DNA of 64,000 bases from Mobula hypostoma (GCF_963921235.1 NC_086097.1:107262001-107326000); one strand, 5' to 3'; shown: positions 21,451 through 58,095, numbered from the stretch's first letter. Made by a program: numbers and translations. Notes: generated by a model not told the origin, from the sequence alone.

Positions 21451-24400
21451 AGAACATAAGAAATAGGAGCAGGATAAGGCCATCTGGCCCTTTGAGTCTG
21501 CTTCGCCACTTAATAAGATCATGGTTGATCTATCCATGGACTCATCTCCACCTACCTGCCTTTTTCCCATAACCCTTAATCTATCCAACCTTGTTTTAAA
21601 TATATTTACTGAGGTAGCCTCCACTGCTTCATTGGGCAGAGAATTCCAGGACGTCACCATTCTCTGGGAAAAGCCTCCTCATCTCTGTCCTAGATCTACT
21701 CCCCCAAATCTTGAGGCTATGTCCCTAGATCTCACCTACCAGTGGAAACAACTTTCCTGCCTTTATTTTATCTATTCCTTTCATAACGTTATATGTTTCT
21801 ATAAGATCTCCTCTCATTCTTCTGAATTCCAGTGAGTACACTCCCAGGTGACTCAATTTCTCCTCATAGTCTAACCCCCTCAAATCTGGGATCAAACTGC
21901 TGAACCTCCTCTGCACTGCCTCCAAAGCCAGTATATCCTTCCTCAATTAAGGAGACCAGAACTGCCTGTAATATTCCAGATGTGGTCTCACCAGTACCCT
22001 GTACAGTTGCAGCATAACCTCCTAGCTCTTAAATTCTATCACTCTAGCAATGAAGGCCAACATTCCATTTGCCTTAATGATAGCCTGCTGCACCTGCAAA
22101 CAAACCTTTTGTGATTCATGCACAAGCACTTCCTAGTCCCTTTGCACAGCAGCTTGCTGCAGTTTATTACCATTTAAATAATAATCTGATCTTCCATTTT
22201 TCCTTCCAAAGTGGATGACCTAGCATTTACCAACATTGTACTCCTTCTGCCAGACCCTTGCCCACTCACTTAACCTTTCTATATTTCTCTGCAGACTCTT
22301 TGTATCTTCTGCTCAATTTGCTTTTCCAATCAATTTAGTATCATCAGCAAACTTAGGTACACTACATGTGGTCCACTCTTCCAGATCATTAATGTATGTC
22401 GTAAACAGTTATAGCATCGGCTCCTGCGGCACACGGTCACCACTGATTGCCAGCCCATGTATCCCAACTCTCTGATTTCTATCAGTTAACCAATCCTCTA
22501 TCCATGCTAATACATCACCTCCAACTCTGTGAATCCTTATCTCATGGATAAGTCATTTACGTGGCACCCTATCGAACGCTTTCTGGAAATCCAAGTAAAT
22601 AACATCCATCTGTTTCCCTCTATCCACTGTTCTCATTATATCCTCAAAGAACTCCAGTAAGTTTGTTAAACAGGACCTGCCTTTGCTGAATCCATGCTGC
22701 TTCTGCCTGAAGGATCCATTTCTTTCCAGATGTCTCCATTATTCTTCTTTAATGATAGCTTCAAGCATTTTTCCCAACTACAGACATTAACCTAACTAGT
22801 CTATAGTTACTTGCCTTTTGCCTACGTCTTTTTTTGAACAGTAGCGTGACAGATAGCTACTACATTGAGGTCCTCATCTCCCACTGCATCCATACATCTC
22901 TTTGGCATGTGAGATGTGTCCCCAACTGTGAAGACCAATACAAAATAGTCATTCAAAGCCTCTGCCATTTCCTCATTACCCAATATCAATTTCCCCTTCT
23001 CGTCCTTGAAAGGACCTGCGTTTACTCTAGCCACCCTTTTCCGCTTTATGTAATTTTTAAAAACTTTTACTATCCGTCTTTTTATTTTGTGCTGGTTTAT
23101 TTTCATAATCTAGAATCCCTTTCTTTATTGCTCACTTCGTGGTTCTTTGTTGCTTTTGAAAGTTTTCCCAATCTTCTAGTTTTCCACTACTCTTGGCAAC
23201 TTTGTATGCACAAGCTTTTAGTTTGACACCTTTTATTTCATTAGTTATCCAAGGCTGGCTCTACCCACCCTTACTGTCCTTGCTTTTAACTGCAATATAC
23301 TTTTGTTGAGCACTGTGAAAAATCTCTTTGAAAGTCTTTCACTGTTTCTCAACTGTCCCATCATATAGCCTGTGTTCCCATTCGACATTAGCCAAATCCT
23401 CCCTCATTCCATTGTAGTCTCCATTGTTTAGGCATAAAACACTGGTTTTAGATTGAACTATTGCACCCTCCATTTGTATAATAAATTCAATCATACTGTG
23501 ATCACTCTTTCCAAGAGGATCCCTAACCACAAGATCACTAATTTTACCTGCCACATTCCAGAGGATCAGATCTAGAGTAGCATGTTCCCTTGTAGGTTCA
23601 GTAACATGCTGTTTAAGAAAGCCATCATGGGTGCATCTATGAAGTCCTCCTCAAGATTGCCTTAACCAACTTAATTCACCCAATCTTTGTGCAAGTTAAA
23701 GTGCCCCAGGATAACTGCTGTTCCATTTTTACATGCCTCAGATATCCCTCTGTTTATTGCCTGTGCCACTGTAATGTTATTATTTGGTGGCCGATAGACA
23801 ACTCCCACCAGTGATTTTTTTTCTCTTTACTATTCCTAATCTCTACTCAGATGGATTCAACATTCTGCTCTCTAGATCTTATATATGTCTCCCCCATCAC
23901 CCTGATCTCATCTTTAATTAAGAGCACAACCCCACCTTCCTTACCTTACTGTCTATCCTTCTGTATTACCTAATATCCATGGATATTTAATTCCCAATCC
24001 TCTCTAACCTGTAACCATGTCTCTGTAATGGCCACTAAATCATACTCCCTTGTATTGATTTGTGCCACAAGTTCACTGACCTTGTTTTGAATACTATGGG
24101 CATTCAAATAAAGTGCTTTTAAAATCTTGTAATCTTTTACTCTTTTGCACTTTTTTCACTCCACTTTTACTTTTCTCTTCTTTATATTTTGCTTTTACTT
24201 TATCTTTATCCACACTTTTCTTTTTTACTTTGTCCATACTTCTCCAATATATTGAACCCACCCCCTACTATTTAGTTTAAAGCCCTATCCACGGCCCTAG
24301 TTACGCGATTCACTAGGATCCAGTTCTCATCACTGTTCAGATGGAGCCCATCCCAATGGTACAACTCCCTCCTTCCTCAATACTGGTGCCAGTTCCCCAT

Positions 24401-41305: not shown

Positions 41306-43966
41306 TACTTTATACTTTATTGTCGCCAAACAATTGGTACTAGATCGTACAATCATCACAGCAATATTTGATTCTGTGCTTCACACTCCCTGGATTACAA
41401 ATGTTAAATATTAAGAAAAAATTAAAAATATTTAAAATTAGTAAATATTAAAAACTTAAATTATAACTCATAAATAGAAAATAGAAAAATGGGAAGTAAT
41501 GTAGTTCAAAAAAACTGAGAGGCAGGTCCGGATATTTGGAGGGTATGGCCCAGATCCGGGTCAGGATCCGTTCAGCAGTCTTATCACAGTTGGAAAGAAG
41601 CTGTTCCCAAATCTGGCCGTATGAGTCTTCAAGCTCCTGAACCTTTTCCCGGAGGGAAGAGGGACGAAAAGTGTGTTGGCTGGGTGGGTTGTGTCCTTGA
41701 TTATCCTGGCAGCACTGGTCCGACAACATGCGGTGTAAGGTGAGTCCACGGACAGAAGATTGGTTTGTGTGATGTGCTGCGCCGTGTTCACGATCTTCTG
41801 CAGCTTCTTTCGGTCTTGGACAGGACAACTTCCATACCAGGCTGTGATGCACCCTAGAAGAATGCTTTCTACCGTGCATCTATAAAAATTAGTGAGGGTT
41901 TTAGGGGACAGGCCAAATTTCTTTAGTTTTCTCGTTAGATTCTGGACTAGTTCCTGAGGATTGGAGGGTGGCTAATGTAACCCCACTTTTTTAAAAAGGA
42001 GGGAGAGAGAAACCGGGGAATTATAGGCCGGTTAGCCTAACGTCGGTGGTGGGGAAACTGCTGGAGTCAGTTATCAAGGATGTGATAACAGCACATTTGG
42101 AAAGCGGTGAAATGATCGGACAAAGTCAGCATGGATTTGTGAAAGGAAAATCATGTCTGACGAATCTCATAGAATTTTTTGAGGATGTAACTAGTAGAGT
42201 AGATAGGGGAGAACCAGTGGATGTGGTATATTTGGATTTTCAAAAGGCTTTTGACAAGGTCCCACATAGGAGATTAGTGTGCAAACTTAAAGCACACGGT
42301 ATTGGGGGTAAGGTATTGGTGTGGGTGGAGAGTTGGTTAGCAGACAGGAAGCAAAGAGTGGGAATAAACGGGACCTTTTCAGAATGGCAGGCGGTGACTA
42401 GTGGGGTACCGCAAGGCTCAGTGCTGGGACCCCAGTTGTTTACAATATATATTAATGACTTGGATGAGGGAATTAAATGCAGCATCTCCAAGTTTGCGGA
42501 TGACACAAAGCTGGGTGGCAGTGTTAGCAGTGAGGAGGATGCTAAGAGGATGCAGGGTGACTTGGATAGGTTGGGTGAGTGGGCAAACTCATGGCAGATG
42601 CAATTTAATGTGGATAAATGTGAAGTTATCCACTTTGGTGGCAAAAATAGGAAAACAGATTATTATCTGAATGGTGGCCGATTAGGAAAAGGGGAGGTGC
42701 AACGAGACCTGGGTGTCATTATACACCAGTCATTGAAAGTGGGCATGCAGGTACAGCAGGCCGTAAAAAAGGCGAACGGTATGCTGGCATTTATAGCGAG
42801 AGGATTCGAGTACAGGAGCAGGGAGGTACTACTGCAGTTGTACAAGGCCTTGGTGAGACCACACCTGGAGTATTGTGTGCAGTTTTGGTCCCCTAATCTG
42901 AGGAAAGACATCTTTGCCATAGAGGGAGTACAAAGAAGGTTCACCAGATTGATTCCTGGGATGGCAGGTCTTTCATATGAAGAAAGACTGGATGAACTGG
43001 GCTTGTACTCGTTGGAATTTAGAAGATTGAGGGGGGATCTGATTGAAACGTATAAGATCCTAAAGGGATTGGACAGGCTAGATGCGGGAAGATTGTTCCC
43101 GATGTTGGGGAGGTCTAGAACGAGGGGTAACAGTTTGAGGATAGAGGGGAAGCCTTTTAGGACCGAGGTTAGGAAAAACTTCTTCACACAGAGAGTGGTG
43201 AATCTGTGGAATTCTCTGCCACAGCAAACTGTTGAGGCCAGTTCATTAGCTATGTTTAAAAGGAAGTTAGATATGGCCCTTGTGGCTACAGGGGTCAGGG
43301 GGTATGGAGGGAAGGCTGGGTTCTGAGTTGGATGATCAGCCATGATCATAATAAATGGCGGTGCAGGCTCGAAGGGCCGAATGGCCTACTCCTGCACCTA
43401 TTTTCTATGTTTCTATGTTTCTATGTTTCTCAGGAAGTAAAGGCACTGGTGGGCCTTCTTGGCAGTGAACTCTGCTTGGTTGGACCAAGTCAGGTCATTT
43501 GTGATATTGACCCCGAGGAACTTAAAGCTTTTGACCTATTCCACTTGCGCACCACCGATGTAAATTGGGTCGTGCGGTCCGCAACTCCTTCTGAAGTCAA
43601 CAACTAACTCCTTCATCTTGCTGACATTGAGAGATAGGTTATTATCTTCTCACCATGCCACCAGGTTCTTAATTTCCTCTCTGTACTCAAACTCTTCATT
43701 ACCTGAGATACGGCCTCCAATTGTTGTGTCATCAGCAAACTTATATATTGAGTTTGATGGAAACTTGGCTACACAATCATGGGTGTACAGTGAGTACAGC
43801 AGGGGGCTGAGTGCACAGCCTTGTGGGGCACTGGTGCTCAGAGTGATTGTAGAGGGGAGCCTGTTTCTTACAGCCTGGGTCCTGTCTGTGAGGAAGTTGA
43901 AGATCCAACTGCAGATGAAAGTGCTAAGGCCCAGGTTCCGGAGCTTAGGAATCAGTTTATTTGGAA
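41306..43966 (-). mobile_element. Rex1/Babar element interrupted by a CR1
   Basis: PQGCALSPLLYSLYTHDC, KFADDTT and PLPSGKRFRS...NSFFP. Tail AATAAAGTATAAAGTAT. Confidence 0.9.
41934..43425 (+). mobile_element. Young CR1, TTCTATGT-tail subfamily, 5' truncated with an open RT frame
   Basis: 426-aa open ORF 42046-43326. TTTCTC is duplicated at 41928-41933 and 43426-43431. Confidence 0.95.
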
Positions 43967-48529: not shown

Positions 48530-49976
48530 TGAGAACTCCTAAGTCCCCTTGCCTCTCTGACATTTGTATTTTCTCCCTGTTTAGATAATAGTCTCTGCAC
48601 TTCTGTTCCTTTTACCAAAATGCATTCTCATACATTTCCCAACACTGTATTCCATATACCACTTTTTTGCCCATCTTCCGATTTATCTAAGTCCTTCTGC
48701 AATCACATTGCCTCCTCAGCACTACCTACTCCTCCACCTATCTTCGTATCATTTGCAAACTTTGCCACAATGCCATTAATTCCATTACCTTAATCATTGA
48801 CAAACACTGTGAAAAGTAGCAGTCCCAATACTGATTCCTGAGGAACACCATTAGTCACTGACGACCAAGCAGAAAAGGCCCCCTTTATTCCCACTTGCTG
48901 ACTCCTGTTTTTCAGCCATTCCTCTATCTTTCCTGTAATATCACGGAATTTTATCTTGTTAGAAAGCCTCATCTGTGGCACCTTATCAAATGCCTTCTGA
49001 AAAATCCAAGGAAATGACATCCACTGCCTCTCCTTTGTCCACCCTGCTTGTTACTTCCTTGACAAACTCTAACAGATTTGACAGGCAAGCTTTCCCTTTA
49101 CAGAAACCCTGCTGAATTTGACTTACTTTATCAATACCCTCCAAATACTCTGAAACCTCATCATTAATAATGGACTCCAACACCTTCCCAGCCACTGAGG
49201 TTAGGCTAAATGGCCTATAATTTCCTTTCTTTCTCCTCCTCCCTTCTTAAAGAATGGAGTGACATTTGCAATTTTCCAGTCCTCCAGAACCATGCTGAGT
49301 CAAGTGATTCTTGAAAGATCATAACCAATGCATCTGTTATCACTTCAGCAACCTCCTGCAGAACTCTGGAATGTAGTTCATCTGGTCCGGTGACTTAGCC
49401 ACCTTAAGACCTTTCAGTTTGCCTAGCACTTTATCCTTGTAATAGCAATGGCACTCACTCCTGCTCCCTGACAACACTCATGAGCCTCTGGCACACTGCT
49501 AGTGTCTTCCACAGTGAAGGGTGATGCAAAGTACTTATTTAGTTCAATTATCATTTCTTCGTACCCCATTCCTACCTCACCAGCATCATTTTCCTGTAGT
49601 CTAATATCAACTCTCAACTCCCCTTTACTTTTTATATAACTGAAAAAACTTTTAGTATCCAGCTTTATATTATTGGCTAGTTTACCCTCTTGTTGCATCT
49701 TCTCCCTTCTTATGGTTTTTTAGTTTCCTTTTGTTGGATTTAAAAAACTTCCTAATTATCCAACTTCCACTCACTTTTGCTACCTTATCCCTCTGTAATT
49801 CCCTTTATTCTATTGTGATAGTGATACATTTGGCTTATGCTTGTCCCTCTCAAATTGCAGTATGAATTCAATCATATTATAGAAACATAGAAACATAGAA
49901 AATAGGTGCAGGAGTAGGCCATTCGGCCCTTCGAGCCTGCACAGCCATTTATTATGATCATGGCTGATCCTCCAAC

Positions 49977-52900
49977 TCAGAACCCTGCACCAGCCTTCCC
50001 TCCATACCTCTTGATCCCCGTAGCCACAAGGGCCATATCTAACTCCCTCTTAAATATAGCCAATGAACTGGCCTCAACTGTTTCCTGTGGCAGAGAATTC
50101 CACAGATTCACCACTCTCTGTGTGAAGAAGTTTTTCCTAATCTCGGTCCTAAAAGGCTTCCCCTTTATCCTCAAACTGTGACCCCTTGTTCTGGACTTCC
50201 CCAACATCGGGAACAATCTTCCTGCATCTAGCCTGTCCAATCCCTTTAGGATTTTATACGCTTCAATCAGATCCCCCCTCAATCTTCTAAATTCCAACGA
50301 GTACAAGCCCAGTTCATCCAGTCTTTCTTCATATGAAAGTCCTGCCATCCCAGGAATCAATCTGGTGAACCTTCTTTGTACTCCCTCTATGGCAAGGATG
50401 TCTTTCCTCAGATTAGGGGACCAAAACTGCACACAATACTCCAGGTGTGGTCTCACCAAGGCCTTGTACAACTGCAGTAGTACCTCCCCGCTCCTGTACT
50501 CGAATCCTCTAGCTATAAATGCCAGCATACCATTTGCCTTTTTCATCGCCTGCTGTACCTGCATGCCCACTTTCAATGACTGGTGTATAATGACACCCAG
50601 GTCTCGTTGCACCTCCCCTTTTCCTAATTGGCCACCATTCAGATAATAATCTGTTTTCCTATTTTTGCCACCAAAGTGGATAACTTCACATTTATCCACA
50701 CTAAATTGCATCTGCCATGAATTTGCCCACTCACCCAACCTATCCAAGTCACTCTGCATCCTCTTAGCAAGCTCCTCACAGCTAACACTGCCACCCAGCT
50801 TTGTGTCATCCGCAAACTTGGAGATGCTGCATTTAATTCCCTCATCCAAGTCATTAATGTATATTGTAAACAACTGGGGTCCCAGCACTGAGCCTTGCGG
50901 TACCCCACTAGTCACTGCCTGCCATTCTGAAAAGGTCCTGTTTATTCCCACTCTTTGCTTCCTGTCTGCAAACCAGTTCTCCATCCACATCAATACCATG
51001 TGCTTTAAGTTTGCACACTAATCTCCTGTGTGGGACCTTGTCAAAAGCCTTTTGGAAATCCAAATATACCACATCCACTGGTTCTCCCCTATCCACTCTA
51101 CTAGTTACATCCTCAAAAAATTCTATGAGATTCGTCAGACATGATTTTCCTTTCACAAATCCATGCTGACTTTGTCCGATGATTTCACCGCTTTCCAAAT
51201 GTGCTGTTATCACATCTTTGATAACCGACTCCAGCAGTTTCACCATCACCGACGTTAGGCTAACCGGTCTATAATTCCCCGGTTTCTCTCTCCCTCCTTT
51301 TTTAAAAAGAGGGGTTACATTAGCCACCCTCCAATCCTCAGGAACTAGTCCAGAATCTAACGAGTTTTGAAAAATTATCACTAATGCATCCACTATTTCT
51401 TGGGCTACTTCCTTAAGCACTCTGGGATGCAGACCATCTGGCTCTGGGGATTTATCTGCATTTAATCCCTTCAATTTACCTAACACCACTTCCCTACTAA
51501 CATGTATTTCGCTCAGTTCCTCCATCTCACTGGACCCTCTGTCCCCTACTATTTCTGGAAGATTAGTTATGTCCTCCTTAGTGAAGACAGAACCAAAGTA
51601 ATTATTCAATTGGTCTGCCATGTCCTTGCTCCCCATAATCAATTCACCTGTTTCTGTCTGTAGGGGACCTACATTTGTCTTTACCAGTCTTTTCCTTTTT
51701 ACATATCTATAAAAGCTTTTACAGTCAGTTTTTATGTTCCCTGCCAGTTTTCTCTCATAATCTCTTTTCCCCTTCCTAATTAAGCCCTTTGTCCTCCTCT
51801 GCTGAACTCTGAATTTCTCCCAGTCCTCAGGTGAGCCACTTTCTCTGGCTAATTTGTATGCTTCTTCTTTGGAATTGATACTATCCCTAATTTCTCTTGT
51901 CAGCCACGGGTGCACTACCTTCCTTGATTTATTCTTTTGCCAAACTGGGATGAACAATTGTTGTAGTTCATCCATGCAACCTTTAAATGCTTGCCATTGC
52001 ATATCCACCGTCAATCCTTTAAGTGTCATTTGCCAGTCTATCTTAGCTAATTCACATCTCATACCTTCAAAGTTACCCCTCTTTAAGTTCAGAACCTTTG
52101 TTTCTGAATTAACTATGTCACTCTCCATCTTAATGAAGAATTCCACCATATTATGGTCACTCTTACCCAAGGGGCCTCTCACGACAAGATTGCTAATTAA
52201 CCCTCCCTCATTGCTCAAAACCCAGTCCAGAATAGCCTGCTCGTTGGTTCCTCGACATGTTGGTTCCTCGACATGTTGGTTCAAAAAACCATCCCGCATA
52301 CATTCCAAGAAATCCTCTTCCTCAGCACCTTTACCAATTTGGTTCACCCAGTCTACATGTAGATTGAAGTCACCCATTATAACTGCTGTTCCTTTATTGC
52401 ACACATTTCTAATTTCCTGTTTAATACCATCTCCGACCTCACTACTACTGTTAGGTGGCCTGTACACAACTCCCACCAGCGTCTTCTGCCCCTTAGTGTT
52501 ACGCAGCTCTACCCATATCGATTCCACATCTTCCCGGCTTATGTCCTTCCTTTCTATTGCGTTAATCTCTTCTTTAACCAGCAACACCACCCCACCTCCC
52601 CTTCCTTCATGTCTATCCCTCCTGAATATTGAATATCCCTGAACGTTGAGCTCCCATCCTTGGTCACCCTGGAACCATGTCTCTGTGATCCCAACTATAT
52701 CATAATCATTAATAACAATCTGCACTTTCAATTCATCCACCTTATTACGAATGCTCCTTGCATTGACACACAAAACCTTCAGGCACTCTTTTACAACTCT
52801 CTTAGCCCTTATACAATCATGTTGAAAAGTGGCCCTTTTTAATGCTTGCCCTGGATTTGTCGGCCTGCCACTTTTACTTTTCTCCTTAGTACTTTTTGCT

Positions 52901-53022
52901 TCTACCCTCACTTTACACCCCTCTGTCTCTCTGCACTGGTTCCCATCCCCCTGTTGTGAACTAACCTCCTCACGCCTAGCCTCTTTAATTTGATTCCCAC
53001 CCCCCAACCATTCTAGTTTAAA
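49977..53022 (-). pseudogene. CR1 ORF2 (APE endonuclease and RT), broken by a 14-bp deletion
   Basis: VNARS, ITETW, GDFN, SDHN, DFQKAFDKVPH, QGSVLGP and FADD. Confidence 0.93.
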
Positions 53023-53600
53023 GTCACCTCAGTAGCCCTCGCTAATCTCCCTGCCAGGATATTGGTCCCCCTAGGATTCAAGTGTAACCCGTCCTTTTTG
53101 TACAGGTCACGCCTGCGCCAAAAGAGGTCCCAATGATCCAAAAACTTGAATCCCTGCCCCCTGCTCCAATCCCTCAGCCACGCATTTATCCTCCACCTCA
53201 TCGCATTCCTACTCTCACTGTCGCGTGGCACAGGCAGTAATCCCGAGATTACGACCTTTGCGGTCCTTTTTCTCAACTCCCTTCCTAACTCCCTATATTC
53301 TCCTTTCAGGACCTCATCCCTTTTCCTACCTATGTCATTGGTACCTATATGTACCACGACCTCTGGCTCCTCACCCTCCCACTTCAGGATATCTTGGACA
53401 CGATCAGAAATATCCCGGACCCTGGCACCAGGGAGGCAAACTACCATCCGGGTCTCTGGACTGCGTCCACAGAATCGCCTATCTGACCCCCTTACTATCG
53501 AGTCCCCTATCACAACTGCCCTCCTCTTCCTTGCCTTACCCTTCTGAGCTACAGGGCCAGACTCTGTGCCGGAGGCACGGCCACTGTCGCTTTCCCTGGG
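53013..53600 (-). CDS. CR1 ORF1 SGNH/GDSL esterase domain, 5' truncated
   Basis: GDS, PGA, GTND and KDGLH blocks are intact. Confidence 0.88.
   Translation of the reverse strand, partial: PRESDSGRASGTESGPVAQKGKARKRRAVVIGDSIVRGSDRRFCGRSPETRMVVCLPGARVRDISDRVQDILKWEGEEPEVVVHIGTNDIGRKRDEVLKGEYRELGRELRKRTAKVVISGLLPVPRDSESRNAMRWRINAWLRDWSRGQGFKFLDHWDLFWRRRDLYKKDGLHLNPRGTNILAGRLARATEVTLN
53016..53022 (-). promoter_or_regulatory. Candidate -1 ribosomal frameshift heptamer U UUA AAC
   Basis: In ORF1 phase directly before the TAG. The -1 frame is ORF2. Also present at 24275-24281, 54393-54399 and 55015-55021. Confidence 0.7.
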
Positions 53601-54544
53601 TAAGATATGATCACTGCCTCCTAAGGGTTCCTTTACCTTAAGCTCCCAAATAAAATCTGGATTTTTCACAATACTCAATGTAAGATAGCCTTTCCCTGAG
53701 TAGGCTTAAGCATAAGCTGCTCTAAAAAGCCATATCATAGGCATTAAATAAATTCCCTCTCTTGCGATCGGACACCAACCTGATTTTCCCAATCCCGTTG
53801 CATGTTGAAGTCCTCCATTACAATTGTGGCATTACCCTTATAATATAAACTTTCCAGCTTGCATTGCATTCTCAACCCCACATCTTGGCTATTACTTGAA
53901 GGTCTATATATGATTCCCATAATTTTCTTTTACCCTTACAGTTTCTTAACTCCACCCACAAAGATTTGACATTCTCTGACCCTATGACACCTCTTTGTAA
54001 ACATGTAATTCCATCTCTTACCAAAAGAACCACTTATGCCTTCTTGTCTGTCCATTTGATAAAAAGTACATCCTTTGACGTTCAGCTCCCAACTGTGATC
54101 TTCTTTCAGCCACGACTCAGTGATGCCCATAACGTCATACCGACCAATCTCTAATTGAGCCATGAGTTCATCCACGTTATCCCGAATACTCCGAATACAC
54201 CACCTTCAGTCCTGCATTCTCTGCATTCTTTGCCTTTTTGAATTTTGCCTCTGTGGTACAATTTAACTCCTTACACTGTCTGCATTTGTACCCAATCACT
54301 GGCTTGTCCTTCTTTACATTCATGTTACACCCATTGTTTGCTGCCTCATCCTCAGCTCTATCATCTCAGGTTCCCATCCTCCTACCATGTTAGTTTAAAG
54401 CACTCCAAACAGCTCTAACAAACCTGCCCAAAGGATACTGACAGTACAAACATCTCTGCCATGGCTCCAGCAATTTCTTCCATGGCTTCCCACAGTGTCC
54501 GAAAGTACACTTGGTCAGCCTCCAGGGATTTATAACTCCCTACC

Positions 54545-57500
54545 TCCATAGTGAGAGGTACAGAAAGGGGTTTCTGCGGCAACAGGCAAGATTTAAGGAT
54601 GGTGTGTTGCCTCCCTGGTGCCAGGATCCAGGATGTCACAGACCACTTGCAGGGAATCCTCAAGAGTGAAGGTGAACATCCGGAAGTGGTGGTGTATGTT
54701 GGCACAAATGACGTGGGGAAGAAGAGGAAAGACGTTCTACAGCGCGACTTCAGAGAACTCGGAAGAAGGCTAAAAAGCAGGATTTCGGGGGTGGTTATCT
54801 CCGGTTTGCTTCCAGTTCCCCGTGCTGGAGTGGTCAAGAACAGGGAGATAATGGATCTGAATGTGTGACTGAGGAACTGGTGCAGCAAGCAAGGATTTAC
54901 ATTCTTAGACCACTGGGGTATGTTTTGGGGTAAGGATGAATTGTACAAAAGGGACCTTAATAGGCGGGGCACCAGCATTCTGGCAGGCAGGTTTGCCTCT
55001 GCAACATGGGTGTGTTTAAACTAAGTTGTGGGGGGAGCGGACGAACTGGAAATATAAGGATGGAGATAAAGGGAAAATGAGAATAAGAAAAGTTAAGGAA
55101 GACAGCAGAATCAACAGAGCAGAAAGCTCAAGAAGGGATCGTACAGTATGGCCAAGTGAAATAGGAATTGGTATGGGAGGTGAGGGGAGTAATGAATTAA
55201 AAGTATTGTATATGAATGCACGGAGTATAAGAAATAAAGTGGATGAGTTTGAGGCACTGTTGGAAATTGGTAAGTGTGATGTTGTGGGAATAACAGAGAC
55301 ATGGCTTCAAGTGGACAGGGTCTGGGAAATGAATATTCAAGGGTACACGTCCTATCGAAAGGACAGACTGATGGACAAGAGGGGGTGGGGTGGCTCTGTT
55401 GGTGAGGAATGATATTCAGTCCTTTGCGAGGGGGGACATAGAATCAGGAGATGTAGAGTCAGTATGGATAGAACTGAGAAATTCTAAGGGTAGAAAGATC
55501 CTAATGGGAGTTATCTACAGGCCCCCAAACAGTAGTCTGGATGTAGGGTGTAAGTTGAATCAAGAGTTAAAATTGGCATGTCACAAAGGTAATACTACAG
55601 TGTTATGGGGGACTTCAACATGCAGGTAGACTGGAAGAATCAGATTGGTGCTGGGCCCCAAGAAAGGGAGTTTGTGGAGGCCCTCCAAGATGGATTCTTA
55701 GAACAGCTTGTACTGGAGCCTACCAGAGAGAACGCAATTCTAGATTTAGTGTTGTGGAGTGAACCGGATTTGATCAGGGACCTCGAGGTAAAGGAGCCAT
55801 TAGGAAGTAGTGACCATAATATGATAAATTTTAATCTACAGTTTGACAGGGAGAAGGGAAACTCGGAAGTGTCAGTATTACAGTTGAACAAAGGGAACTA
55901 TGCTGCTATGAGGGAGGAGCTGGCCAAAGTTCAATGGACCCTAGCAGGGATGACAGATGTTTCTGGAAATAATGCGGAAGGTGCAGGATCAGTTCATTCC
56001 AAAGAGGAAGAAAGATCCTAAGGGGAGTAAGGGGAGGCCGTGGCTGACAAGGGAAGTAATGGACAGTATAAAAATAAAAGAGAACAAGTATAACATAGCA
56101 AAGACGAGTGGGAAGCCGGAGGATTAGGAAACTTTTAAAGAGCAACAGAAGGTAACTAAAAAGGCAATACGCAGAGAAAAAATGAGGTATGAAGGTAAAC
56201 TAGCCAAGAATGTAAAGGGGGATAGTAAAAGCTTCTTTAGGTATGTGAAAAGGAAAAAAATAGTTAACACCAAAATTGGGCCCTTGAAGACAGAAACGGG
56301 TGAATTTATTATGGGGAACAAGGAAATGGCAGACGAGTTGAACAAGTACTTTGGTTCTGTCTTCACTAGGGAAGACACAAACAATTTCCCAGATGTAATA
56401 GTGGCCAAAGGACCTAGGGTAATGGATGAACTGAAGGAAATTTATATTAGGCAGGAAATGGTGTTGGATAGGCTGTTGGGTCTGAGGGCTGATAAGTCCC
56501 CGGGACCTGATGGTCTGCATCCCAGGGTACTTAAGGAGGTGGCTTTAGAAATCGTGGACGCATTGGTTATCATTTTCCAATGTTCTATAGATTCAGGATC
56601 AGTTCCTGTGGATTGGAGGGTGGCTAATATTGTCCCTCTCTTCAAGAAGGGAGGAAGAGAGAAAACAGGGAATTATAGACCGGTTAGCCTGACGTCGGTG
56701 GTGGGAAAGATGCTGGAGTCAATTATAAAAGATGAAATTACGACACATCTGGATAGCAGTAACAAGATCGGTCTGAGTCAGCATGGATTTACGAAGGGGA
56801 AATCGTGCTTGGCTAATCTTCTGGAATTTTTTGATGATGTAACTATGAAAATGGACAAGGGAGAGCCAGTGGATGTAGTGTACCTGGTCTTTCAGAAAGC
56901 CTTTGATAAAGTTCCACATAGGAGATTAGTGGGCAAAATTAGGGCACATGGTATTGGGGGCAGAGTACTGACATGGATTGAAAATTGGCTGGCCGACAGA
57001 AAACAAAGAGTAGCGATTAACAGGTCCCTTTTGGAATGGCAGGCGGTGACCAGTGGGGTACCACAGGGTTCAGTGCTGGGACCGCAGCTGTTTATAATAT
57101 ATATTAATGATTTAGATGAGGGAATTAAAAGTAACATTAGCAAATCTGCCGATGACACAAAGCTGGGTGGCAGTGTGAAATATGAGGAGGATGTTATGAG
57201 AATGCAGGGTGACTTGGACAGGCTGGGTGAGTGGGCAGATGCATGACAGATGCATGACAGATGCAGTTTAATGTGGATAAATGTGAGGTTATCCACTTTG
57301 GTGGTAAGAACAGGAAGGCAGATTATATCTAAATGGAGTCAAGTTAGGAAAAGGGGAAGCACAACGAGATCTAGGTGTTCTTGTACATCAGTCACTGAAA
57401 GTAAGCATGCAAGTACAGCAGGCAGTGAAGAAAGCTAATGGCATGCTGGACTTCATAACAAGGGGAATTGATTACAAGAGCAAAGAGGTCCTTCTGCAGC

Positions 57501-58095
57501 TGTACAGGGCCCTGGTGAGACCACACCTGGAGTACTGTGTGCAGTTTTGGCCTCCAAATTTGAGGAAGGACATTCTTGCTGTTGAGGGAGTGCAGCATAG
57601 GTTCACAAGGTTAATTCCCGGGATGGCAGGACTGTCATATGTCGAAAGATTGGAGTGACTGGGCTTGTATACTCTGGAATTTAGAAGGCTGAGAAAAGAT
57701 ATTATTGAAACATATAAGATTATTAAGGGATTGGACACGCTGGAGGCAGGAAGCATGTTCCTGCTGATGGGTGAGTCCAGAACCAGAGGCCACAGTTTAA
57801 GAATAAGGGGTAGGCCATTTAGAACGGAGTTGAGGAAAAACTTTTTCACCCAGAGAGTGGTGGATATATGGAATGCTCTGTCCCAGAAGGCTGTGGAGGC
57901 CAAGTCTCTGGATGCTTTCAAGAAAGAGATGGATAGAGCTCTTAAAGATAGCGGAATCAAAGGTTATGGGGATAAGGCAGGAACTGGATACTGATTGTGG
58001 ATGATCAGCCATGATCACAGTGAATGGCGGTGCTGGCTCGAAGGGCTGAATGGCTTACTCCTGCACCTATTGTCTATTGTCTATATTGTCTATTG
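54545..58095 (+). mobile_element. CR1, CTATTGT-tail subfamily, with ORF1 esterase part and disrupted ORF2
   Basis: CLPGA and VGTND, junction at 55015-55024, RT ORF 56182-57246, tail at 58067-58095. Confidence 0.93.

Follow-up and report, generated by a model that had tools for sequence, protein, structure and literature searches.

How does a retrotransposon make its copying enzyme when the frame that encodes it has no start codon near the end of the preceding gene? The question is raised by an element in a 64,000-nucleotide (nt) stretch of the Mobula hypostoma genome (GCF_963921235.1 NC_086097.1:107262001-107326000), the whole of which is referred to here as the window. The element is a long interspersed nuclear element (LINE) of the CR1 clade, with an esterase-type first open reading frame (ORF1) and a second (ORF2) that encodes an apurinic/apyrimidinic (AP) endonuclease and a reverse transcriptase (RT). 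An initial annotation had proposed that ORF2 is reached by programmed -1 ribosomal frameshifting at a U_UUA_AAC heptamer at the end of ORF1. The conservation of this layout across lineages, and a constraint that appears to act at the nucleotide level, support the proposal, and we regard programmed -1 frameshifting, giving a fusion of the two proteins (ORF1p and ORF2p), as the probable explanation and as the best and most economical reading of the sequences.

The translation of the second gene of LINEs has been called an open question in reviews (PMC3894237), and it is settled for very few elements. CR1-group elements, which are the main retrotransposons of most non-mammalian vertebrates, have been reported to make up 22-34% of shark and ray genomes (PMC13343379). 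The layout described below is conserved in distant relatives and hints at how CR1 elements make their copying enzyme. A conserved and phased slippery site also provides a concrete, cheaply testable hypothesis of a Gag-Pol-like ORF1p-ORF2p fusion.

The ORF1-ORF2 junction of the window copy

On the minus strand, the junction reads ...GCT ACT GAG GTG ACT TTA AAC TAG AAT GGT TGG GGG GTG GGA ATC..., and the -1 frame of the same copy reads TGA GGT GAC TTT AAA CTA GAA TGG TTG GGG. The initial annotation was accurate in its particulars here: ORF1 ends in ACT TTA AAC TAG; a slip of one base back leads into the ORF2 frame, which spans 706 codons from stop to stop and 699 from a TTG at codon 8; and the -1 frame opens two codons before the heptamer, with a TGA at 53031-53029. 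The first ATG of the ORF2 frame (locus L010) is codon 218, in VIMGDFN, which is codon 211 as annotated when counted from the TTG. The AUG just past the stop, at 53010-53008, indeed sits in the +1 frame and runs into a stop after 8 codons (ATG GTT GGG GGG TGG GAA TCA AAT TAA). Two canonical features of programmed -1 frameshifting, a phased heptamer and a downstream ORF in the -1 frame that is open across the site, are present.

The upstream (ORF1) frame is open for 230 codons (53705-53013, minus strand), of which the first ~35 are the endonuclease of an older CR1 copy. ORF1 itself contains an SGNH/GDSL esterase domain (Lipase_GDSL_2, 2e-17 in Pfam) that matches the ORF1p esterase of ZfL2-1 (PDB 4c1b, 2e-29). 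In ORF2, Pfam recognizes Exo_endo_phos (5.5e-12) and RVT_1 (2e-14), and RVT_1 resumes in the next frame (6.7e-13). Because the remainder of the RT continues in another frame, ORF2 of this copy is broken near 51000. The window copy is a dead member of a young, abundant family, referred to as family or lineage A.

Recurrence of the junction within and beyond the genome

Genome copies were located by protein searches of the 3.48-Gb genome, with the last 82 ORF1 residues as the family-A query. This search gave 77,015 first-look candidates, and the 150 places scored were all 98-100% identical. Thirty loci were fetched, of which 28 have TTTAAAC and 29 the adjoining TAG; the two heptamer variants, TTTGAAC and TCTAAAC, are both synonymous in ORF1, and since the query included the Leu-Asn codons, this sample could show synonymous variants only. 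Among 28 oriented copies, the first 90 ORF2 codons contain no Met in 25 and no stop in 20, and the VIMGDFN codon is the first ORF2-frame ATG in 17. Intact family-A ORF1 is 311 residues long and comprises a Cys-rich N-terminal part, a stretch resembling a coiled coil, and the esterase; its closest named protein (96%) is from a devil ray. The heptamer junction is the state of a young and very abundant family and not an accident of the window copy.

ORF2 lies in the -1 frame in all five diverged lineages (A to E) of the genome, whose ORF1 ends are given in Table 1. In lineage B, for which the query ended 21 nt before the motif, TTTAAAC is found in 25 of 28 copies. The stop adjoins the heptamer in 31 of the 35 heptamer-bearing junctions listed.

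More distant relatives were reached by alignment of 21 ORF1 proteins, which led to 35 loci on metagenome contigs. The contigs are presumably host DNA, and their ORF1p shares 24-38% identity with the query. Of the 18 loci examined, 13 extend to the ORF1 end. TTTAAAC occurs in 12 of these 13 junctions and an adjoining stop in 11 (TAG in 9, TAA in 1 and TGA in 1), and wherever a junction has sufficient sequence, a G-run comes after the heptamer. The -1 frame leads into the endonuclease, and in L081, L085, L089 and L090 it continues without a stop for more than 430 codons past the heptamer. Leu-Asn is also the C-terminus of 83 of 120 ORF1p homologues; these 83 are from rays, sharks, coelacanth, frogs, turtles, squamates and birds, and most of the other homologues are truncated or chimeric models. 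A predicted fusion protein (P0037), which joins the esterase to the start of the endonuclease (...REGFKLN...), was rejected as evidence, being a single gene model from a single genomic copy.

The heptamer might merely stand, by chance or as a functionless relic, at the ORF1 end of a dead copy, and the state of the window copy, with its 5'-truncated ORF1 and frame-broken RT, would agree with this. Within the window, TTTAAACTAR occurs 4 times against 0.43 expected; none of 100 shuffles gave 4, and all 4 matches are CR1 ORF1 ends. By our own arithmetic, a phased X XXY YYZ heptamer (Y being A or U) has a probability of 32/16384 per codon position, and the overlap offers ~3 positions. This excess, and the recurrence of the cassette within the family, in five lineages of the genome and on distant contigs, already contradict an origin by chance, which is scarcely credible.

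Constraint on nucleotides

Among 15 lineage representatives, each of the nine bases TTTAAAC TA is identical in 14-15, while at the 27 positions 4-30 nt upstream the agreement is only 4-12 of 15. The residue before the Leu may be Thr, Cys, Ala, Gly, Asp or Ser, and the third base of its codon is T in 14 of the 15 lineages. Similarly, in 81 of the 83 proteins ending in Leu-Asn, the preceding residue can be encoded by NNU; Lys, Gln, Arg, Met and Trp are never found there. The ORF1 background is different, with TTA making up 16 of 137 Leu codons (12%), AAC 11 of 35 Asn codons and T 25% of third positions. A varying residue with a constant third-base T, together with the rarity of TTA elsewhere, indicates that RNA rather than protein is constrained. 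As judged from these comparisons, the constraint at the junction acts on nucleotides, not on residues.

The reading frames around the heptamer are also informative. In 9 of the 15 lineages, an upstream stop lets the -1 frame open no more than 3 codons before the heptamer, and with the frame closed so near, the heptamer is the only site for a productive shift. Downstream, intact copies show no stop in the -1 frame between heptamer and endonuclease in any lineage with sufficient sequence, and the other two frames are full of stops over this interval.

These frames bear on the possibility that ORF2 is initiated independently, by leaky scanning, an internal ribosome entry site or a separate RNA, and that TTTAAAC is kept for another reason, either for the C-terminal Leu-Asn of ORF1p or as an RNA- or DNA-binding site. 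In the ORF1p tail no residues are better kept than L310 and N311, but a requirement for Leu-Asn in the protein leaves unexplained why TTA and AAC alone are used and why a U precedes them. An in-frame ATG lies immediately upstream of the endonuclease in lineage C (TMSVRALYLNARS) and 34 codons upstream of it in lineage D, as independent initiation would have it, but the position of the first ATG is not conserved. The nearly neutral evolution of the linker between heptamer and endonuclease would likewise suit such a start, whereas the open -1 frame between stop-filled alternatives speaks against it.

Four public runs, of a kind not on record, were compared as contigs; they cannot show expression, strand or rare variants, and carry little weight. 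Their three skip joints are each found in one contig at a depth of at most 8.43, and no joint is carried by more than one contig, which again does not favour a separate RNA. Among the rows listed for these contigs, there is no variant of at least 10% within 52990-53025, and variable positions flank the site (52972, 52986 and 52989 on one side; 53026, 53029 and 53038-53043 on the other). The only indel among those listed for the 451 bases covered is at 53095. Overall, independent initiation of ORF2 seems very improbable.

Frameshifting and reinitiation

The frameshift reading draws on the phased U_UUA_AAC, the preceding wobble U, the adjoining stop, the constant -1 offset of ORF2, the open frame and the downstream element, and these features are kept across lineages with ORF1p identity down to about 25%. 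The proposed cassette would consist of U_UUA_AAC in phase with ORF1, the stop of ORF1 immediately next to it, and a G-run box that begins 7-10 nt further. Most ribosomes would stop at the ORF1 end and release ORF1p, while a minority would slip one base back, from UUA-AAC to UUU-AAA, and continue in the -1 frame. The transframe reading would be ...EVTLN/LEWLGGGN..., with a predicted transframe peptide ...TEVTLNLEWLGGGNQ..., and the shifted ribosomes would cross the ~85-codon linker into the endonuclease and RT. The product would be an ORF1p-ORF2p fusion at a low, set ratio, in the manner of Gag-Pol. While the layout and its conservation are read directly, we infer from them the slip and the resulting fusion, as well as any part played by the stop or the G-box. 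U_UUA_AAC has been described as one of the most shift-prone heptamers on mammalian ribosomes (PMC5009743). Even unstimulated slipping on it could suffice for the small ORF2p need of a LINE.

Alternatively, translation of ORF2 could follow termination-coupled reinitiation, in which ribosomes that have ended ORF1 would start again in the -1 frame no more than a few codons away, using an AUG where one is present and a non-AUG codon elsewhere, and ORF2p would be made separately. The U/A-rich heptamer and the G-box would then serve the restart rather than slipping, and the position of the stop, adjoining the motif, would fit. Such a restart has been shown for SART1 and argued for human L1, and dependence of ORF2 translation on ORF1 translation is documented in both (PMC2881922, PMC3894237). 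The initial annotation had asked for the frames to be compared across CR1 elements. ORF2 was found in the -1 frame throughout. In 5 of 15 lineages an AUG lies 0-2 nt past the stop and is codon 3 or 4 of the ORF2 frame when counted from the heptamer. It forms a UAAUG overlap in lineage E and in L099, and is found in the ORF2 frame as UAGNNAUG in L081, L083 and L089. Because of this AUG, termination-reinitiation stays a live rival.

On the other hand, no AUG lies within four codons of the stop in 10 of the 15 lineages, and in family A, where ORF2 lacks a start codon of its own, there is none for 217 codons. A conserved restart codon is not seen either, the codon after CTA being GAA, AGT, AAT or ATT in lineages A to D. 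Reinitiation needs neither a constant -1 ORF2, nor a phased X XXY YYZ, nor a preceding wobble U, all of which are kept. The window copy has no SART1-type stop-start overlap (its sequence is UAGAAUGG, where the AUG belongs to the +1 frame), and UAAUG is limited to the 2 of 15 lineages named above. Reinitiation of the calicivirus type depends on a termination upstream ribosome-binding site (TURBS), a UGGGA-type motif required upstream of the stop-restart site. In the window copy no UGGGA lies upstream of the stop, and the motif occurs only downstream, within the G-box. Overall, we consider reinitiation unlikely, and it may coexist with frameshifting in lineages with an AUG at the stop.

The downstream element and points against frameshifting

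A conserved element is present across lineages at the distance expected of a frameshift stimulator, in the form of the G-run. G occupies +17..+21 in 14-15 and +24..+26 in 11-13 of the 15 lineages, third codon positions included; for comparison, GGG makes up only 55 of 138 Gly codons elsewhere. Wherever a junction is covered by sequence, the G-run begins 7-10 nt past the heptamer, most often at 10 nt. Family A has two G-boxes (Table 1). Lineage E shares the ORF2 5' region of family A and differs in ORF1, and relative to it family A is longer by 18 codons, which lie between FKL and QGDGN and between the two boxes. The arrangement in family A (52942-53009, minus strand) looks like the scar of an ORF1-module exchange that carried heptamer, stop and G-box, which suggests that the three travel as a unit.

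In family B (L031-L060; window 55025-55040, plus strand), the G-run is of variable length, which places the next anchor 17 to 27 nt away. Instability of the homopolymer has repeatedly put ORF2 out of the -1 frame in single copies, as in the lineage-B copy of the window, where the G-run following the heptamer has 6 G.

Several observations weigh against programmed frameshifting. In addition to the AUG beside the stop in some lineages, the copy in which the junction was first noticed is defective, as described above. One distant junction deviates from the motif (L085, GTTAAAC, read G TTA AAC), and the esterase-ORF1 homologues P0107 and P0116 end in ...EFFR, so that the cassette is not universal among esterase-ORF1 elements. 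Family B is weak on frame, as the 19-nt spacing to the downstream anchor that gives the -1 frame is a mere plurality (11 of 27 copies, against 18 nt in 7 and scattered values in 9). Between a lineage-A and a lineage-E copy, dN/dS is 0.88 over 64 linker codons, compared with 0.24 in the endonuclease part. Selection on the linker at the protein level thus finds no support, and the openness of the linker alone, not its sequence, argues for its translation.

The remaining difficulties concern RNA structure. No significant fold was detected downstream of the heptamer in the window copy (z-scores of 0.93 and -0.03), and 14 of 16 lineage sequences fold at z -0.95 to +1.07. No hairpin is shared at 5-9 nt past the heptamer, in a comparison in which pseudoknots were not explicitly searched, and the only hairpin shared by the bird/reptile-type group starts 28 nt past the site and has one compensatory pair. 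An Rfam scan of 52700-53200 gave no match up to E = 1. A hairpin or pseudoknot as the stimulator is unsupported by these results, and the lack of a frameshift-type hairpin in the window copy and the lineage folds would accord with reinitiation. ViennaRNA predicts a two-layer G-quadruplex 6 nt past the heptamer in 5 of 16 sequences, the window copy included; with so few, a G-quadruplex cannot be the general answer, and it was rejected as such.

A broader version of the frameshift proposal is possible but doubtful. It holds that the cassette is an ancient one of CR1 elements, from cartilaginous fish to birds, with a non-hairpin, G-rich stimulator that would act as a small G-quadruplex or as a linear protein- or rRNA-binding site at the mouth of the mRNA channel. 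If true, -1 frameshifting would have its first natural stimulator of a G-rich kind, and in the LINE clade that dominates in non-mammalian vertebrates ORF2p would be active as a fusion of esterase, endonuclease and RT. The G-run box is a candidate for the class of stimulators described as 'not currently known but anticipated' in nature (PMC5009743). A fusion, if it is made, also bears on cis-preference, on the ORF1p/ORF2p ratio and on the annotation of ORF2 starts in gene models and repeat libraries.

Other features of the window and of related records

The family-A copy is a nested insertion: truncated at its 5' end near 53600, it lies inside the endonuclease of an older D-like CR1 (53600-54400, minus strand), of which an endonuclease piece is recognized at 53936-54205. 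A second family-A fragment (41931-43403, plus strand) is 95% identical, comprises the RT and 3' end only, and has one octamer unit more. Octamer tails of the form (TTTCTATG)2-3 close two copies, giving a short-octamer 3' end without poly(A); the chicken CR1 octamer is ATTCTRTG (PMC2612034).

The last base of the heptamer and the UAG stop form a CUAG tetramer, and CUAG recurs 30-40 nt further on in L083, L090, L094 and the window (52975-52985, minus strand). The repeat is not long enough to be taken as a structural element, and junctions with a UAA stop lack it.

Some named protein records contain CR1 ORF1. Within the group P0026, P0062, P0065 and P0022, these are ray gene models called '40S ribosomal protein S24 isoform X2' and 'transmembrane protein 204 isoform', and an 'SGNH/GDSL hydrolase' filed under Pseudomonas aeruginosa. 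They are probably chimeric models and one contaminant contig. A scan of bacterial and archaeal genome contigs found no contaminating CR1 copies.

Table 1. Positions in the window of the elements of the CR1 junctions, and ORF1 ends of the five lineages
Feature	Position	Strand	Basis	Remarks
Slippery heptamer T TTA AAC	53016..53022	-	sequence read	X XXY YYZ phase in ORF1 frame
TAG, ORF1 stop	53013..53015	-	sequence read	adjoins heptamer without gap
TGA closing the -1 (ORF2) frame	53029..53031	-	sequence read	two codons 5' of heptamer; confines a productive shift to heptamer
ORF1 of window copy, esterase part	53016..53600	-	ORF map, Pfam	no start codon; 5' end near 53600
ORF2, -1 frame	50908..53028	-	ORF map, Pfam	~85 linker codons, then AP endonuclease and first RT half
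RT remainder and ORF2 C-terminus	49977..51017	-	ORF map, Pfam	different frame; RVT_1 positions 101-197
3' untranslated region	49878..49976	-	sequence read	terminal (TTTCTATG)n, CR1-type octamer tail
G-box 1, GGTTGGGGGGTGGG	52996..53009	-		G-run from 10 nt after heptamer
G-box 2, GGGGGATGGG	52942..52951	-		54 nt after G-box 1; identical to single G-box of lineages D and E
Lineage A ORF1 end				ACT TTA AAC TAG
Lineage B ORF1 end	54544-58071 (window copy)			TGT TTA AAC TAA; 28 located copies; window copy ~65% identical
Lineage B junction, second CR1 copy	55015..55024	+		T TTA AAC TAA
Lineage C (old) ORF1 end				GCT TTA AAC TAA; 12 loci, TTTAAAC in 11, TTTAAAT in 1
Lineage C junction, third CR1 copy	24272..24281	-		GCT TTA AAC TAA, then GGGGGTGGG
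Lineage D (young) ORF1 end				GGT TTA AAC TAA; 6 loci; GAG replaces stop in one copy
D-like junction, fourth CR1 copy	54390..54399	-		GCT TTA AAC TAA; family-A copy inserted in its endonuclease
Lineage E ORF1 end				GAT TTA AAC TAA; 2 loci

Comparison with known systems

Two statements on which the initial annotation had leaned, that U_UUA_AAC is the coronavirus site and that L1 ORF2 uses termination-reinitiation, are consistent with PMC5009743 and PMC2881922. In SART1 (UAAUG) and human L1, as in CR1, the LINE RNA is bicistronic and the synthesis of ORF2 protein needs ribosomes that have translated ORF1 (PMC2881922, PMC3894237), a dependence that would also apply in CR1. CR1 differs from both in that most of its lineages are without an AUG at the stop, the phased heptamer is kept and ORF2 is always in the -1 frame. 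Among LINEs, TRE5-A and TRE3-A of Dictyostelium are two-ORF elements of the AP-endonuclease type for which a review legend states that ORF2 requires a -1 frameshift; they belong to another LINE clade and to another kingdom than CR1.

A 1997 paper on chicken CR1 reportedly describes 'two closely spaced' ORFs. The esterase of zebrafish ZfL2-1 (PDB 4c1b) is homologous to that of the window element (2e-29), but ZfL2-1 is an L2 element; in vertebrate CR1 and L2, the esterase ORF1 is described as the only recognized ORF1 type (PMC13343379). No report of frameshifting in CR1 or L2 was found in the literature searched, which included papers on CR1, on ORF1 and on LINE translation; the overlap may have been noted in the first accounts of full-length CR1 from chicken and turtle or by Kapitonov and Jurka 2003. 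In the sections available of a large 2016 review of frameshifting, non-LTR (long terminal repeat) elements are mentioned only for the Drosophila telomeric HeT-A and TART.

The adjoining stop and the G-run have partial counterparts among viruses. In barley yellow dwarf virus (BYDV), the shifty site is directly followed by the ORF1 stop. 'Linear' mRNA stimulators have been described that start 12-15 nt past the site and act with trans-acting factors, as has the distal element of BYDV (PMC5009743). Compared with luteovirus, dianthovirus, arterivirus and cardiovirus sites, the candidate element of CR1 is G-rich and lies 7-10 nt past the site.

Finally, CR1 shares with the Gag-Pol type of retroviruses, LTR retrotransposons and coronaviruses a phased X XXY YYZ that ends the upstream gene and a polymerase in the -1 frame without its own start, and the expected product would likewise be a fusion at a low, set ratio. 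CR1 is, however, a non-LTR element whose upstream gene encodes an esterase-type ORF1p, not Gag, and whereas the coronavirus site has a pseudoknot, neither a hairpin nor a pseudoknot was found in CR1, which instead has a G-run box ~10 nt downstream and a stop adjoining the heptamer. The mechanism would be of a known kind, while its conserved use in CR1, with a G-run in place of a hairpin, appears to be new in the literature searched.

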